Positions 38,044 to 46,436 of a stretch of 64,000 bases of DNA are shown here, piece by piece. The stretch is taken from contig CAVZKL010000009.1 of assembly GCA_963775895.1 (NCBI GenBank), forward strand, positions 32,001 to 96,000, given 5' to 3'. This DNA comes from Candidatus Bathyarchaeota archaeon. GTDB taxonomy: Archaea > Thermoproteota > Bathyarchaeia > Bathyarchaeales > Bathycorpusculaceae. Every line of letters starts with the position of its first letter. Position 1 is the stretch's first letter. The notes under the pieces are model-generated. The model saw nothing but the letters and a program-made list of their open reading frames with translations, was not told where the DNA came from and searched no databases. Made by a program: the position numbers and the translations under genes.

Positions 38044-38079
38044 TTGGTTGATGGATAAAACTTTACCCCAACCAACCAA
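38044..38079 (+). repeat. Island repeat site S1
   Basis: TTGGTTGATGGATA-AAACTT-TACCCCAACCAACCAA imperfect palindrome. Confidence 0.85.
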
Positions 38080-38138
38080 AGTCTTGATTTCAGTGTGGAA
38101 CATAATCTTTAATTAGATATTGTTACGATTTCCTGTGT

Positions 38139-38396
38139 ATGGTGACTGAGAAGGAGAAGCGTCGCCTGAGACTTTACGGTGTCATCATAGTTTTGGTAAG
38201 CATCTGGGCGTTTTTCTTTGGATCAGGAAGAGGAATATTGGCACAGTACTCCTATCTGGTTTGGGGGGCACCTATACTGGCTCTTGGAGCCGCAGTCGTC
38301 ATTATCAGCTATCTCCTGCCTTCAAAAGAGACATCCCGAAAAGAGAACCTGAAAAACATTCAACCAGCCAAGAACCAAGCACAGCAGGTTGAATGA
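38139..38396 (+). CDS. Small two-TM membrane protein
   Basis: 85 aa with two hydrophobic helices; TATA-like CTTTAATT upstream; lies between S1 and S2. Confidence 0.7.
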   Translation: MVTEKEKRRLRLYGVIIVLVSIWAFFFGSGRGILAQYSYLVWGAPILALGAAVVIISYLLPSKETSRKENLKNIQPAKNQAQQVE

Positions 38397-38425
38397 AGCC
38401 TAAGCCACTTATTAGTAGAAAGACG

Positions 38426-38465
38426 GTTTGGGTTTGGGGGTAAACTTTACCCCAATCAACCAAAC
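38426..38465 (+). repeat. Island repeat site S2
   Basis: GTTTGGGTTTGGGGGTA-AACTT-TACCCCAATCAACCAAAC followed by GCGCGCGC. Confidence 0.85.
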
Positions 38466-38543
38466 GCGCGCGCTGTGGTCAACGTTAGAGTAAAGCTTAA
38501 TTGAGTGTTTTGTTCTGAGGCAATTAGGTTGGAGGTGGATTTC

Positions 38544-39029
38544 TTGAACCTTTTTGGGCATAAGACAGAACCTAAGGTTCTGTTGACTTATGATGTGATG
38601 ATGAAATGCAAGTGCGGAGTGTGTCCAGTCCAAGCTAATAGTGCGTGTGCCAAACCTAAGATAATGGCTAGAGATGAAATGATGAAGAACCCGAGCTCTG
38701 AAATAAAGAGGATCATGACCCCTGGAATGATGCAGAACCTGGAAATGATGAAGAACATGAGCCCTGAAATGATGAAGAACATGTCAAAAGAACAGATGAA
38801 GAACTTGAGCGATGAAATGATGAAGAACACGCCAAGAGAACAGATTGCGACTATGATGCCTAAAGTGGAAGATATGCCTGGGCCTTATTGTGCTAACGGT
38901 GTTGCAGTCTGTAAAGACCTTGATTTCAGCAAGACGTGCATTTGCAGCGGGTGCCAGGTTTTCAAGGACTTTAGTCTCATGAAAGGTAAACCAATGAGCT
39001 ACTTCTGTAAAGACGGCAAAGCTATATAA
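38544..39029 (+). CDS. DUF2769-like Cys-rich protein with Met-rich repeat insertion
   Basis: CKCGVCPV..SAC, YCANG..VC, CICSGCQV, YFC..G; SD GGAGGTG before TTG; poly-T after the stop. Confidence 0.75.
   Translation: MNLFGHKTEPKVLLTYDVMMKCKCGVCPVQANSACAKPKIMARDEMMKNPSSEIKRIMTPGMMQNLEMMKNMSPEMMKNMSKEQMKNLSDEMMKNTPREQIATMMPKVEDMPGPYCANGVAVCKDLDFSKTCICSGCQVFKDFSLMKGKPMSYFCKDGKAI
38742..38830 (+). repeat. About 4 x 24-bp coding tandem repeat (EMMKNMSx)
   Basis: GAAATGATGAAGAACATGAGCCCT and variants. Confidence 0.85.
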
Positions 39030-39038
39030 TTTTTTTTC
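39030..39038 (+). terminator. Archaeal poly-T terminator
   Basis: T-tract immediately after the stop of the DUF2769-like gene. Confidence 0.55.
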
Positions 39039-39183
39039 CACACCTTTCTTCATCCGCATCTCCATCCACGTGGCCCTAGCCGTTTTTTGATTAGATTTCA
39101 GTCCTACCAACCAAGAACTAGGTGTAGAGCTTCCAATGGAGCAAGTTATCTTCCGCTAAAAGTGAAAGACCTTCTTCGCTTGA

Positions 39184-39219
39184 TTGTTGTTGGATAAAAC
39201 TTCCCCCAAACCAACAACA
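39184..39219 (+). repeat. Island repeat site S4, upstream of intN copy a
   Basis: TTGTTGTTGGATA-AAACTT-CCCCCAAACCAACAACA. Confidence 0.8.
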
Positions 39220-39268
39220 GACTTGTAACGAAGAACTTCCCCTCGCCCCCGCCCGGGTGCAAGCGCAA

Positions 39269-40331
39269 ATGTCTAACAAACATAATGTCGTATTGTATCT
39301 AGACAAGAAATTGGTTGAAAAGGCTCGTAGTTTTGGCTTCAATCTCAGTAAGACCTTCGAAAATCGCTTGAAACACTTGTTGACGCAATTTTCACAGGTC
39401 AATTCTTTGAACAGCACTGAAAACAATAGTAATCTTGGTGATTGGTGGGCCGAGCCGGACTTGAACCGGCGACCTTTGGCTCGTAAAGCCCCAGAATCAC
39501 CATCAGAAAATGAAAGTCAAATGCTTGAGCGATTTCATGACTTTCAAATTGTCGACTTGAGAAGAAACAAAAGAACAGCTTACGAAAAAAGTCTGGTTCA
39601 CAAAGAGACTACTCAAAGCGGTTGCGAAAAGTCCTAATGACATTACGGCAGATAACTTGAGAGGTTACTTGAAAACACTTGAAGGTTACAGTGCATCTTA
39701 CTACAAAAATGCGTTGACGGCTCTAAAAGTGTTTTTCAGAGACTTCTTGAAGATGCCTGAAGTTGTTGAGACTAAGTTTCCACATCAAATCTTCAGACCA
39801 AAACAGATTCTGAGCAGAGAACAACTGAGACAGTTTTACTCGTGTCTTGAAACAGCGAAAGAGAAAGCATTATTCATGTTGTATGCGACGACTGGGTTGA
39901 GAAGAGAAGAAATTCTATCACTCAAATCCGAAAACATTGACTTCAGTAAACGAATGATAATACCAAACAATCATGACGGTGAAACTAAGAAGTCATGGGT
40001 CAGCTTTTACAATGAAGAAGCAGAACAAGTACTGCAGGAATACATGAAAACAAAGAAGCCTTCTAGAAGTCAGAGATTATTCCCGATGCAGAGAGACGAA
40101 GTTGTTGAGCTATGGAAATCTGCCAGAGAAGAGATCAATATTGACATTACGCCACAGAAGCTGCGTCAATGGTTCTGTTCAGAAATGTTAAGGTTAGGCG
40201 TATCTGAAACTTATGTTGATGCTTTCTGTGGTAGAGTGCCGAAGTCAGTCTTAGCCAGACATTATGCCGACTTCTCGCCGCAAAAACTCGAAGAAATCTA
40301 CGAGAAAGCTAATGTCAAGATTCTATCATAG
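39269..40331 (+). CDS. int: SSV-type tyrosine integrase with RHH/CcdA-like N-terminus and an internal tRNA-derived att (one extra A in the A6 run at 39585-39590)
   Basis: Removing one A joins ..AYEK|VWFTKRLL..ITADNLRGYL into an ORF of about 353 aa; catalytic TGLR, QKLR, CGR, RHY. Confidence 0.88.
39443..39490 (-). repeat. att site: 48-bp copy of the tRNA-Val 3' portion inside int
   Basis: 46/48 identical to 46661-46708, including anticodon loop, T-arm and CCA. Confidence 0.93.
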
Positions 40332-40344
40332 GCGCGCGCGAGGA

Positions 40345-44776: not shown

Positions 44777-44835
44777 ATGAGTGACTTTCTTCGTTCTCGC
44801 TCTAAAGTCTTGCGAAGAGCTAAAATTGCGCGTGC

Positions 44836-44860
44836 GATAAAACTTTACCCCCAAACCCAA
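44836..44860 (+). repeat. Island repeat site S6
   Basis: GATA-AAACTT-TACCCCCAAACCCAA preceded by GCGCGTGC. Confidence 0.85.
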
Positions 44861-44912
44861 GCCTTGCGATGCAAAAACAAGTATTTTAATACCGAGTTGA
44901 ACGCTTTGTTGT

Positions 44913-45329
44913 GTGGGGAAAGATTTGTCACAGCAACAACCACCGCCACCACCACCGCCAATACCAACAAAGAGAACAGGTTATCCAATTGCCGCAGCCA
45001 TTCTAGCAATCATTGCTTCTGGTATAGAAGCGCGCTACATCGTATTCCTTTTTGTTGGGGCACCTGGTTCGCTTTGGGTGTTAATAGGAATCTTCGCTGT
45101 TGTCGTTTTTGCATTTGGTTTGACGGGGGGAATATTCTCGATAGGACGGAGACACTTTGGGTTGTCAATATTCGGGATGAGTCTTCTAACACTTATGGGA
45201 TTTTTCGCGCTGTTAATCCCTGCGCTGTTCGGTGAACTGAACAGCGGATTGTATGTTGGAATACCCATAATCATCCCTTCAATCTTGAGCGTTATCTTCA
45301 CTGCCATATCCAAGAGTGAGTTCACTTAG
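44913..45329 (+). CDS. Four-TM membrane protein with poly-Pro N-terminus
   Basis: QQQPPPPPPP followed by four hydrophobic helices; TATA-like TTTTAATA upstream. Confidence 0.7.
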   Translation: MGKDLSQQQPPPPPPPIPTKRTGYPIAAAILAIIASGIEARYIVFLFVGAPGSLWVLIGIFAVVVFAFGLTGGIFSIGRRHFGLSIFGMSLLTLMGFFALLIPALFGELNSGLYVGIPIIIPSILSVIFTAISKSEFT

Positions 45330-45352
45330 GAAGCTTAGCGCGTATTCGCGAG

Positions 45353-45834
45353 GTGATGTTGATGAACATTCACTTAAGAGAAGCAAAAGCAACTGACATG
45401 CCATTAGTGAAGAAAATCGCTGTTGAAACATCGTGGGAATATATCCCTGAAACACAGAAAAAGCTTCTCGATAGAGAGAAATGGAATATGCGTGTGATTG
45501 AGTATTATGAGAATGTGTTGAAGGAGGAAAATAGCGAGGTCTTTATCGCAGAGGATGAACACCATAAGTATGTTGGACACTTGATCGTTGGACAAACCAG
45601 AGGCACGATTACTGAGCTGAGCTTCGGCTATATTTACGATATTTTTATTGAAGAGAAATTCAGAGGCAAGGAAATCGGGAAGATGCTTTGGAAAAGGCGG
45701 AAGATTATTGTCGAGAGAAAGGGCATTCCAGAATTGCTCTTTCGGTATCAGCGACAAATGACTCTGCAATAAAGCTTTACAGCAGAACTGGATACAAACC
45801 AGAACGAATAACCATGGCAAAAGAGATAACCTGA
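45353..45834 (+). CDS. GNAT acetyltransferase (frameshift near 45688)
   Basis: LREA...D, GYIYDIFI...RGKEIGK; shifted frame continues ..N.SAIKLY.RTGY to TGA at 45834. Confidence 0.85.
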
Positions 45835-45850
45835 CAGTAGTTTTGTGTGT

Positions 45851-45883
45851 GTGTTTGGGATAAAACTTTACCCCAACCAACAA
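45851..45883 (+). repeat. Island repeat site S7, between convergent genes
   Basis: GTGTTTGGGATA-AAACTT-TACCCCAACCAACAA. Confidence 0.88.
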
Positions 45884-45942
45884 TGCGTGAATGAGACTTC
45901 GTTTGTTTTTTCTTATTCCTGCTAGTGAACACCTGCCAACAG

Positions 45943-46360
45943 TCATCGTTGACTCTCGGAAACCCTGATTTGCCGTAGAATATTCGCAGTGTCGTATTCG
46001 ACCCATTCTTCAACGATTTTTCCAGCCTTGAACAGAACAATATCCATGTAGGATATCGCAATTCGCTTTCCAGTTGCGGGAACGCCCTGATATTCTCCGG
46101 TATGAGTGCAATACATTGTTATGCGATTAGCGACCTTGTCATTTTCAGCGATTTGGTCTTCCACAACTGCTTCAATGTTAGAGAACGCCTTGAGAAACAC
46201 CATTTCATCTCTTTTTCTCTCCTGAGTTCATCGATTCTCCACCTCCTCTAGGATGGAGAACGTAGCCGGAGCCTATGAATTTCATTACAGCACCTATATC
46301 TCCAGTATTATACGCCTCAAAGTAGCTACGAGCTATCGCCTTGTTGAGTACAGAAGACAT
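45943..46360 (-). CDS. SnoaL-like ester cyclase (frameshift near 46215)
   Basis: MSSVLNKAIARSYFEAYNTGD...; AENDKVA, THTGEYQGVPATGK, GKIVEEW. Confidence 0.82.
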
Positions 46361-46402
46361 AATATGCAGACACCACCGTCAATTTGTCAGTATCTGACGG
46401 CA

Positions 46403-46436
46403 TTTAGATAAGACTTTACCCTCAAGCCCAATCACC
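46403..46436 (+). repeat. Island repeat site S8, upstream of intN copy b
   Basis: TTTAGATA-AGACTT-TACCCTCAAGCCCAATCACC. Confidence 0.8.

Follow-up and report, generated by a model that had tools for sequence, protein, structure and literature searches.

A near-palindromic site with an almost invariant, asymmetric core of 17 bp (GGATAAAACTTTACCCC) recurs in Bathyarchaeia, where directly repeated copies divide accessory DNA into small gene units. We give an even chance to the reading that these units are small gene modules inserted in the manner of Campbell integration at the core of a shared site, which would make the system integron-like in function. That the sites are boundaries of inserted units is what we infer from the direct-repeat arrays, the mirrored arms specific to each unit and the homology blocks that end at cores. 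Bathyarchaeia are abundant sediment and peat archaea, and we know of no genetic system for them. If the units move by core recombination, this would be a second, independent cassette-style gene capture, with a site architecture unlike attC and without the involvement of an integron integrase; it would explain part of the accessory-gene turnover of Bathyarchaeia and provide a defined 17-bp site for enzyme discovery, possibly an engineering tool for the group. Even if it is a binding site only, the motif is a sharply defined, lineage-specific genomic signal.

Site anatomy and the island in the window

The window analyzed here is a DNA stretch of 64,000 nucleotides (nt), and it contains, as a preliminary description had reported, seven plus-strand copies of the motif, all of them intergenic; five are exact. 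The arms that it described are real: in a logo of 107 copies, the core is flanked by a G/T-rich left arm of ∼12 nt and an A/C-rich right arm, and the 17 core positions are near-invariant across many species, while sequence beyond ∼12 nt of arm is random (the 107 copies were gathered at ≤1 mismatch, which inflates core conservation). The core is a near-palindrome, TAAA-AC-TTTA within GG..CC, and by eye the conservation in the logo lies in the centre of the site and not in outer boxes. Plus-strand matches to GATAARACTTTACCC are exact at 38054, 44322, 44836, 45859, and 46407 and imperfect at 39193 (2 mismatches) and 38438 (3 mismatches, in a variant one base shorter). With ≤3 mismatches allowed, the window holds 8 matches versus 2.41 ± 1.39 expected, a number reached in 0 of 100 shuffles; the eighth, at 44915-44929 on the minus strand, looks like a chance match. 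A degenerate plus-strand copy previously proposed at 39087..39114 is not supported as a member, since a 28-copy profile (nhmmer, E ≤ 1) reported no match there.

The seven copies (all on the plus strand) differ in their arms and neighbors, and the tandem (S1, S2, and S5), divergent (S6 and S8), and convergent (S7) gene contexts were described correctly. S1 (38042..38081) consists of a G/T arm, the consensus core (15-mer at 38054-38068), and an A/C arm, with a DJ-1/PfpI gene on one side and a gene for an 85-amino-acid (aa) membrane protein on the other. S2 (38425..38465) has the variant core GGGTAAACTTTACCC at 38438-38452, from which one A is missing; in public runs, some strains have an extra A inserted behind 38441. 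S4 (39181..39222; core GATAAAACTTCCCCC at 39193-39207) and S8 (46400..46436; core GATAAGACTTTACCC at 46407-46421, weak arms) lie ∼20 nt upstream of the intN_A and intN_B promoters, respectively. S5 (44300..44348) has its core, GATAAGACTTTACCC, at 44322-44336 and a right arm that continues into a GCGCGCGC run, and the left arm of S6 (44826..44862; core at 44836-44850) is a GC run. The segment from S6 to 45330, comprising the core and the gene for a 138-aa membrane protein, has an 87% copy on contig C23. S7 (45840..45884; core at 45859-45873) lies where the GNAT and SnoaL genes meet with their 3′ ends, and one contig of one public run carries a 5-nt deletion in its left arm.

The island around these copies has the features of an SSV-type element: its integrase gene is split by an att site in a tRNA gene, intC matches the archaeal phage integrase domain PF16795 (37.1 bits), and an exact 38-nt repeat is present at 39415 and 46633. 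The intN_A gene (39257..39490, plus strand) encodes the ribbon-helix-helix-like N-terminal part of an SSV-type integrase (PF07362, 25.3 bits) and ends in an att/tRNA fragment; intC (39561..40331, plus strand), in a different frame, encodes the catalytic part of a tyrosine recombinase (PF00589, 58.9 bits); and intN_B (46475..46750, plus strand) extends into the tRNA-Val(tac) gene (46661..46738, minus strand), which is the integration target. The integrase is frame-broken, also in the form excised in silico. The best family for intC is XerA_Arch (89.6 bits; cut-off, 220), and its assignment as an integron integrase, a tyrosine recombinase distinguished by an additional IntI-specific domain, was rejected (TIGR02249, 38.5 bits with a cut-off of 265; NF011946, 19.6 with a cut-off of 435). 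The cargo comprises an ABC-2 permease (two overlapping open reading frames [ORFs], probably frame-broken) and an ABC ATPase on the minus strand (40345..42831) and, between S4 and S8 (43702..46360), membrane-like ORFs of 136 and 157 aa on the minus strand, the 138-aa membrane protein and a GNAT on the plus strand, and a SnoaL gene in two pieces on the minus strand. In our preferred reading, the seven copies would represent two arrays of core-bounded modules, located within or next to a tandem pair of decaying SSV-type elements that occupy tRNA-Val.

As stated before, a copy lies just upstream of each intN gene, at 54 to 62 nt. An alignment of the two intN regions, 39190 to 39490 with 46404 to 46708, has 87.6% identity and starts 3 nt before the core, which confirms where their similarity had been said to begin. 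The crossover that had been read from this position is not required, because the conserved intN module begins across genera at the promoter CACCAGACTTATAACA, just downstream of the motif.

Distribution of the motif and its relation to recombinases

No copy had been seen outside the island, which is true within the window but not genome-wide or genus-wide. Across 12 contigs of the source genome, on either strand, the motif occurs 20 times exactly, 28 times if ≤1 mismatch is allowed, and 39 times if ≤2 are (a few 2-mismatch hits within long ORFs are probably chance). It is present in all 10 genus genomes, in many other Bathyarchaeia metagenome-assembled genomes, and in 26 viral contigs; among the viral or mobile-element contigs that carry it, one has a capsid gene. 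Copies also occur singly, scattered over the chromosome. They reside in lineage-specific DNA: the motif was found at 0 of 8 orthologous FEN-1 loci, the tRNA-Val locus of genomes G001 and G002 measures 2.7 kb versus 9.9 kb and is without it, and a monooxygenase gene adjacent to the motif was not found in any of the 10 other genomes of the genus. Such multiplicity differs from a XerA/dif system, with its single site per replicon.

The original proposal was an integron-like platform, in which an attI-like site beside the SSV-type integrase receives cassettes captured in the island by that integrase or by XerA. The position of the copies upstream of both intN genes, the shared orientation of all seven window copies, and two loci in which a copy lies ∼60 nt from an integrase gene (L079 and L084) are consistent with it. 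In three large contigs of relatives, 4 of 42 motif clusters have a PF00589 gene within 10 kb, versus 4.0 expected, so that the claimed anchoring on tRNA-splitting integrases did not hold up, and most copies, like the largest array (8 copies, G042:C1:486.8-493.0 kb), have no integrase at that distance or closer. Among 14 intN homologues in other genera, 12 are without the motif, one has a distant, probable chance hit, and one has a 3-mismatch armed copy ∼100 nt upstream; the motif is also missing from the sister integrase element of contig C7, and the window integrase is broken and directed at tRNA-Val. The distribution of the motif thus already largely refutes this model, to which we attach hardly any probability.

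No partner enzyme was found for the motif, which counts against insertion. In the source genome (88.8% complete), there were 0 matches to PF00239 (serine recombinases), though the TAAA-AC-TTTA form of the core is that of a serine recombinase site, in which inverted half-sites surround a 2-bp crossover, and 0 to PF01797 (Y1 transposases); four intact tyrosine recombinases of this genome are patchily distributed, and their occurrence does not follow that of the motif. Nor does any protein family recur beside the sites, the commonest being GNATs (9 of 88 loci) and integrases (7 of 88), which again speaks against the insertion model.

Co-orientation, mirrored arms, and core-bounded homology

Neighboring copies ≤3 kb apart were co-oriented in 36 of 48 pairs (33 of 45 without the island), with a median spacing of 1,006 nt. 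In six relatives, the proportion was 44 of 55, with same/opposite counts of 21/5 below 1 kb and 23/6 at 1 to 3 kb and of 17/10, 10/9, and 23/16 at greater distances. The sites thus form arrays that divide single ORFs, as in integrons, whereas genes within co-oriented pairs point either way (10 same versus 11 opposite). The modules between directly repeated cores usually hold one gene in 0.4 to 3 kb, with its own TATA-like box; GNAT, SnoaL, methyltransferase, glyoxalase, and small membrane proteins are among those encoded. About one-fifth of close neighbors are inverted, with a skew (10 convergent versus 2 divergent) that the insertion model does not predict.

Gene ends could suggest another function, namely that of protein-bound intergenic punctuation (an operator, roadblock, insulator, or bidirectional terminator zone), with a dimeric DNA-binding protein on the quasi-palindrome GGRTAAA-AC-TTTAYCC and the arms as a compositional by-product. 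The near-palindromic core, always intergenic, would suit such a protein, and winged-helix regulators occur among the neighbors. Copies often lie 20 to 50 nt past a stop codon and 40 to 80 nt ahead of a start codon, gene 3′ ends are slightly over-represented to the left and right of the site, with a convergent context in 22 of 62 cases, and GC runs, which themselves peak 0 to 10 nt after stop codons, often adjoin. Distances to gene ends are not fixed, however, the core hexamers are not among promoter-enriched words, and the motif is not kept at orthologous loci. Punctuation also leaves unexplained why an asymmetric core is co-oriented regardless of gene direction, why arms are mirrored unit by unit, and why homology blocks end at cores, and we consider it rather unlikely.

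Mirror symmetry links the two arms at either end of a gene unit but not the left and right arms of a single site. Among the 34 units examined first, inner arms had a k5 Jaccard similarity of 0.130 versus 0.068 for random pairs, and same-site arms were no more mirror-like than random ones. The effect was replicated in 41 fresh units (inner, 0.126; outer, 0.045; random, 0.073; paired inner-versus-outer P = 0.003), in which anchored identity, a measure introduced only at this stage, was 6.32 for inner, 4.63 for outer, and 5.04 for random arms of 12 positions. For 58 units left after collapsing homologues, the observed value was attained in 41, 9, and 13 of 3,000 permutations that re-paired the arms. 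The effect is modest (about 6.3 versus 5.0 to 5.6 of 12 positions), and solitary sites showed no mirror symmetry in a sample that, at six sites, is underpowered. Unit mates share rare arm types, such as (CTTCC)n with (GGAAG)n at L063, (CTC)n at L209, and CAAACACACACA at L032.

This mirroring is also unaccounted for if the motif is taken for a selfish, miniature REP-like or MITE-like palindrome that spreads in intergenic and especially accessory DNA. Its extragenic, lineage-specific, and clustered occurrence, with tens of copies per genome and many between convergent genes, fits such a repeat; the conserved centre with variable arms is the opposite of REPs and MITEs, the source genome has no RAYT-type Y1 transposase, and the complementarity between the arms of a site does not exceed that between arms taken from different sites (−9.21 versus −9.89 kcal/mol). 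We regard this origin as very improbable.

Between species, homology blocks of 83 to 93% identity have their ends at cores. One block (L216/L235, genomes G044 and G001) has 89.2% identity over 443 nt; it starts 12 to 13 nt before the upstream core and stops 3 nt into the downstream core, and the 250 nt that adjoin it at either end are unrelated. Another (L202_1260/L253_1313) has 83.1% identity over 597 nt, from −8 to +11/+12, and an alignment of three genomes also shows core-bounded homology. As a yardstick, orthologous FEN-1 proteins are 86 to 89% identical, and an ATP-grasp protein is 70% identical. One-sided homology is not commoner at motif sites (62 of 70, counted among sites with any homologue) than at control intergenic sites of the same loci (152 of 175), and some arrays are merely syntenic between species, which argues against insertion. 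Among contigs of the public runs examined, neither a circle nor an empty site was seen, and the sides of all motif-to-motif joints measured 18 to 29 nt, which is repeat cross-matching.

Host homologous recombination that integrates circles or fragments with the 17- to 40-bp element, with no dedicated enzyme, would produce the same direct repeats and hybrid arms and would fit the failure to find a recombinase. GC runs at other module junctions, such as C10:42466-42524 between segments copied on contigs C7 and C22, also favor this route. It explains neither a near-invariant 17-bp core among species whose orthologous proteins are 70 to 89% identical nor the restriction of left arms to G/T and of right arms to A/C, and it appears improbable to us.

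In the insertion model, the motif would be the conserved asymmetric core of a recombination or insertion site in a clade of Bathyarchaeia (the genus and close relatives). Each module would bring two arm halves, A/C-rich after the upstream core and a mirror-image G/T-rich half before the downstream core: a circle with one palindromic-armed site would enter a resident site by Campbell-type recombination within the core, and every array site would consequently be hybrid. The general form of the earlier claim that the sites delimit units is thus supported by direct repeats, mirrored arms, and core-bounded homology; its island-specific, integrase-anchored details are not supported. More tentatively, and as a possibility somewhat against the odds, Bathyarchaeia may have a cassette system unrelated to integrons, with single-gene circles, a fixed 17-bp asymmetric centre, and free palindromic arms. 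The G/T and A/C restriction could then be a universal pairing code that keeps hybrid sites foldable or bindable, so that they recombine again; the recombinase would be an unrecognized family acting in trans; and units would move between species, as nucleotide blocks that are ∼90% identical between different species might suggest.

Comparison with known systems

The element had no match in the literature searched. REP/BIME elements with RAYT transposases are palindromic repeats outside genes; they are restricted to particular lineages, occur in clusters, and are often found at gene 3′ ends. The motif shares these properties and differs in the lack of a Y1 transposase in the source genome, in conservation of the centre and not the stems, and in a copy number of tens, not hundreds. 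Stoperators of Cluster A mycobacteriophages are many copies of an asymmetric 13- to 17-bp site in short intergenic gaps of a mobile element, and they resemble the motif in this respect. Stoperator orientation follows transcription, whereas that of the motif is independent of gene direction, and the motif is also found in chromosomal DNA.

As in Campbell integration (attP × attB giving hybrid attL and attR), common-core direct repeats flank the insert, the flanking arms are hybrid, and the insert retains its own two half-sites. In contrast to phage or plasmid integration, the units consist of one gene each and lack an integrase of their own, and each genome offers dozens of target sites, not one attB. 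The island is itself an SSV-type element with tandem related intN copies; that system uses the tRNA-Val att site, not the motif, which lies outside the conserved int module of other genera.

Against Rfam (E ≤ 1), nothing attC-like was found in 36000-48000, though whether Rfam includes an attC model is uncertain. In integrons, the array adjoins the integrase and attI, and most cassettes are promoterless and share one orientation. The present system, in contrast, is without IntI, its putative crossover falls at the centre of the palindrome, unit genes point either way with their own TATA-like boxes, and copies also occur singly on the chromosome. An attC site, which works as a folded strand with extrahelical bases and carries R″/L″...L′/R′ boxes, combines conserved outer boxes with a central part that varies, the reverse of the conserved centre and variable arms seen here. 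Clusters of attC without an integrase (CALINs) are reported in Archaea too (PMC9668308), and most motif arrays likewise have no adjoining recombinase. Like integron arrays and CALINs, the motif arrays consist of co-oriented sites ∼0.4 to 3 kb apart that divide single accessory genes, and each unit, like an integron cassette, holds sequence that would complete its own site upon circularization.

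Copies of the element and their distribution

Exact copies of the repeated near-palindromic sequence GATAARACTTTACCC lie on the plus strand of the window at 38054, 44322, 44836, 45859, and 46407 (n = 5), and two further plus-strand copies are found at 39193 (2 mismatches) and 38438 (a variant one base shorter). Allowing ≤3 mismatches, the window contained 8 matches compared to 2.41 expected, a number reached in 0 of 100 shuffles; the eighth match is on the minus strand and appears to be due to chance. The seven copies listed in the preliminary description are all intergenic, and the gene contexts given there are right; the additional "degenerate copy" at 39087-39114 was not found with a profile made from 28 copies.

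Across 107 non-identical copies, collected with a ≤1-mismatch search and an arm filter that both bias the picture of conservation, the 17 bases GGATAAAACTTTACCCC are nearly invariant and are flanked by ∼12 nt of G/T on the left and ∼12 nt of A/C on the right, with no conservation farther out. The core is a near-palindrome (TAAA-AC-TTTA within GG..CC), the symmetry of which is broken by the central AC and an A/C pair. A hairpin selected within the single site was rejected for the array sites, since their own arms pair no better than arms taken from different sites. A promoter or TATA element was likewise rejected: words from the core are absent from the promoter-enriched hexamers, and the spacing to gene ends is not constant.

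The window belongs to contig C9 of a 1.77-Mb Bathyarchaeia metagenome-assembled genome (MAG) (88.8% complete). The motif is spread over 12 contigs of this genome, on both strands; 20 copies are exact, and the count rises to 28 when one mismatch is allowed and to 39 when two are (∼33 copies with nhmmer at an E value of <0.01). Within the genus, the exact 15-mer is present in each of the 10 other genomes (maximum, 27 copies); elsewhere in the family, it is present in only 3 of 14 genera, with 1 to 2 copies each; the reversed-sequence control gave 0 matches in all but one of 41 genomes. At least 106 stretches were matched in a one-genome-per-species scan. Among the 80 matches listed, 51 were titled Bathyarchaeia or Bathyarchaeota and included every multicopy locus; the other 29 were single matches in unrelated taxa, which we take to be the chance level for a 16-mer given the amount of DNA scanned. 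The element first noticed in the window is real and unusual, and its general role was plausibly guessed, but it is clade-wide rather than specific to one island or anchored on a tRNA-splitting integrase. That it is a selfish repeat appears improbable to us.

The motif was also carried by 26 IMG/VR contigs, one of which had a capsid gene. A metagenome scan with the 138-amino-acid membrane protein returned two loci; L158, 67% identical to this protein, adjoins a different three-site array, the neighbors of which are not homologous to those in the window. A diverged core, GACATAACTTTCCCCC, found upstream of an N-terminal integrase copy (intN) in the related genome G090, is not multicopy in four other genera and was dismissed.

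The tRNA-Val island, its integrase, and candidate partners

The island around 38044-46436 is associated with a tRNA-Val(tac) gene (46661-46738, minus strand). It has two intN regions (39190-39490 and 46404-46708) with 87.6% identity, and each encodes a CcdA/ribbon-helix-helix-like N terminus. A single catalytic part, intC (39561-40331; PF00589 and PF16795), lies after the first intN but in another frame, and joining the second intN to intC in silico left the reading frame broken; the frame break lies near an A-rich run (∼39565-39600). Several cargo genes of the island look broken as well: the ABC-2 permease (40345-42025) consists of two overlapping open reading frames (ORFs), the GNAT gene (45353-45835) is shortened, and the SnoaL gene (45943-46360) is in two pieces. 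Homopolymer assembly errors may account for the broken cargo genes and integrase frame. In the related genomes G001 and G002, the tRNA-Val locus spans 2.7 kb, compared to 9.9 kb here, and is free of the motif, which shows that the island is lineage specific. It looks like two SSV-type elements, in tandem and decaying. A second related integrase element of the same genome (C7:4321-13814) occupies a different tRNA-Val gene; the integrase encoded there has in-frame stops and is 54% identical to that of the island, and no copy of the motif was found in this element.

The preliminary description proposed a system of the island anchored on the tRNA-splitting integrase. In the window's genome, 5 of ∼17 motif clusters lie within ∼6 kb of a PF00589 match; on the large contigs of three relatives (G001, G041, and G042), 4 of 42 clusters were ≤10 kb away, with 4.0 expected. 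Nor does the motif belong to the intN module, which is common in other genera and opens with a promoter (CACCAGACTTATAACA...) and then a leader, both conserved: the motif is absent from 12 of 14 intN loci of other genera, and the remaining two have one distant 3-mismatch match and one armed 3-mismatch copy ∼100 nt upstream, respectively. We therefore regard this specific model as very improbable. Conservation of the CACCAGACTTATAACA box and of a GC-rich leader, CCCCTCGC...GCCCGGGTGC, ahead of intN extends to ≥14 genera of the family (loci L171 to L184); in the window, the promoter-like box and leader are at 39222-39270 and 46436-46486, and the leader could apparently fold into a hairpin.

Searches for another partner gave no candidate. 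Neither a serine recombinase nor a Y1 transposase was found in the window's genome (88.8% complete), and four of its recombinases were rejected, as none of their phyletic profiles matches the distribution of the motif. A neighbor-family search found no recurrent protein family among motif neighbors, an apparent "Cas1 cluster" being an artifact of single linkage. Thus, recombinase, neighbor-family, and phyletic-profile searches yielded no enzyme for insertion at the core. Recombination through short homology would need no enzyme; we consider this explanation improbable too, on a par with a selfish repeat.

Nor is the motif tied to gene direction. Starting from 193 matches (99 with arms, 98 unique, and 15 within crude ORFs), gene contexts were usable for 62 copies: 22 lay between convergent genes and 12 between divergent genes, and among those between tandem genes, 15 were co-oriented and 13 opposite. 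A protein-bound punctuation element is a reading we hold to be unlikely, though less so than a selfish repeat. Array cargo includes GNAT, SnoaL, methyltransferases, glyoxalase, dodecin, rubrerythrin, Fe-S proteins, small membrane proteins, and wHTH regulators, which are typical accessory genes.

Units between neighboring copies

We give about an even chance to the reading that gene units (the DNA between two neighboring copies) were inserted by recombination at the core. Between species, homology blocks begin and end at cores. G044 and G001 share 89.2% identity across 443 nt, from 12 to 13 nt before the upstream core to 3 nt into the downstream core; G042 and G005 share 83.1% across 597 nt (−8 to +11/+12); and G042 and G001 share 92.9% inward from the upstream core. 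In a three-way alignment, the A/C arm past the upstream core is shared along with the unit, and the sequence before the core is unrelated. A ∼400-nt unit in G042, G044, and G001 (L207, L216, and L235) encodes a small Cys-rich, Lys-rich protein of ∼40 amino acids and has ∼90 to 93% nucleotide identity in the three species, above the core-gene expectation. Neither outside flank was homologous in 25 of 25 homologous unit pairs, no more than an illustrative result given that flanks went down to 150 nt and pairs were redundant.

A circle carrying a site with palindromic arms would integrate inside the core of a resident site; all sites would then be hybrids, and the mates would be the two arms flanking the insert. 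In a first set of 34 units, the inner arms (those facing into the unit) were mirror-like above random pairs, and same-site and outer arms were not. For replication, fresh arrays were fetched, giving 41 new units, to which the same measures and a new one, anchored identity, were applied. Values for inner, outer, and random pairs were 0.126, 0.045, and 0.073 (k5 Jaccard), −9.42, −7.03, and −7.69 kcal/mol (duplex energy), and 6.32, 4.63, and 5.04 of 12 (anchored identity), with paired inner-versus-outer P values of 0.003 to 0.017. After homologous units were collapsed to 58, the inner arms were re-paired in 3,000 permutations, of which 41, 9, and 13 attained the value observed. The effect is modest. 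Mirror symmetry was not seen at six solitary sites, a sample too small to be informative.

Neighboring motif copies ≤3 kb apart were co-oriented in 36 of 48 pairs. In six relatives, a set that shares some genomes with these 48 pairs, same/opposite counts were 21/5 at <1 kb, 23/6 at 1 to 3 kb, 17/10 at 3 to 10 kb, 10/9 at 10 to 50 kb, and 23/16 at >50 kb; co-orientation is local only. Enclosed genes point either way (10 versus 11). One in five close neighbors is inverted, and inverted pairs within 3 kb have the CCCC ends facing (convergent) rather than the reverse at 10:2, an excess that the insertion reading does not predict. In G001, the motif changes orientation twice, near an orc1/cdc6 gene at 692 kb and at ∼2.29 Mb; replication polarity was rejected because the complete chromosome G041 lacks such a pattern and copies >10 kb apart are oriented at random to each other. 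Constant orientation over hundreds of kilobases was seen in some genomes (G001:C1, G042:C1, and G043:C3) and not in G041; in G042, 17 of 18 copies across 65 to 712 kb are on the minus strand.

The insertion reading is weakened by several results: the failure to find an enzyme, the inverted pairs, the modest size of the mirror effect, the plain synteny of some arrays between species, and one-sided homology that is equally common at motif sites (62/70) and control intergenic sites (152/175), so that this mosaic test was discarded as evidence for insertion. Paralogue boundaries in the window's genome (9 of 270 HSP ends ≤30 nt from a core, ∼6 events) are weak evidence because intergenic placement alone accounts for much of the excess. 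Logan contigs from four public runs (X1, X3, X4, and X7) contained motif-to-motif joints with 18- to 29-nt sides and depth peaks on repeats; these joints are repeat cross-matches, and neither a circle nor an empty site was seen.

At the eight FEN-1 loci of the genus (L161 to L168), the motif was found in 0 of 8, and a gene of ∼437 amino acids directly follows FEN-1 in 7 of 8; in the window's genome, this gene is on another contig. The adjacency is broken only there (C13:20900-21500), where motif-flanked small ORFs follow FEN-1, and the 437-amino-acid gene, apparently frameshifted, is on C7 near the second integrase element.

The window (37137-37402) and contig C19 (72521-72789) share a duplicated 269-nt segment (96% identity), with homology stopping at a motif copy in C19 and at a GC run in the window. 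Contigs from public metagenomes accumulate both on this window segment and on 43218-43618, which suggests that each is a widespread repeat in the community. The commonest 8-mer of the genome is GCGCGCGC, with 254 copies compared to ∼18.5 expected from base composition; in the window, it occurs at ∼38466, 40332, 42890, 43139, 43352, 43690, 44340, and 44829. Of 381 alternating CG runs of ≥7 nt, 241 fall outside crude ORFs, a portion that makes up ∼13% of the genome, and the runs peak 0 to 10 nt past stop codons. They often adjoin or replace motif arms and mark other module junctions (e.g., C10:42466-42524).

Comparison with known systems

Our literature searches, which included PMC10848311, gave no description of the element, and the motif is none of REP/RAYT, dif, or MITE. 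In geometry and cargo, the arrays are like integron cassette arrays and CALINs, and canonical integrons with IntI and attC are reported from archaeal MAGs (PMC9668308). In contrast to integrons, the integrase of the window scores far below the IntI cutoff, the site has a conserved center and free arms, and the genes in motif arrays point either way with their own promoters; for these reasons, the system is not an integron.
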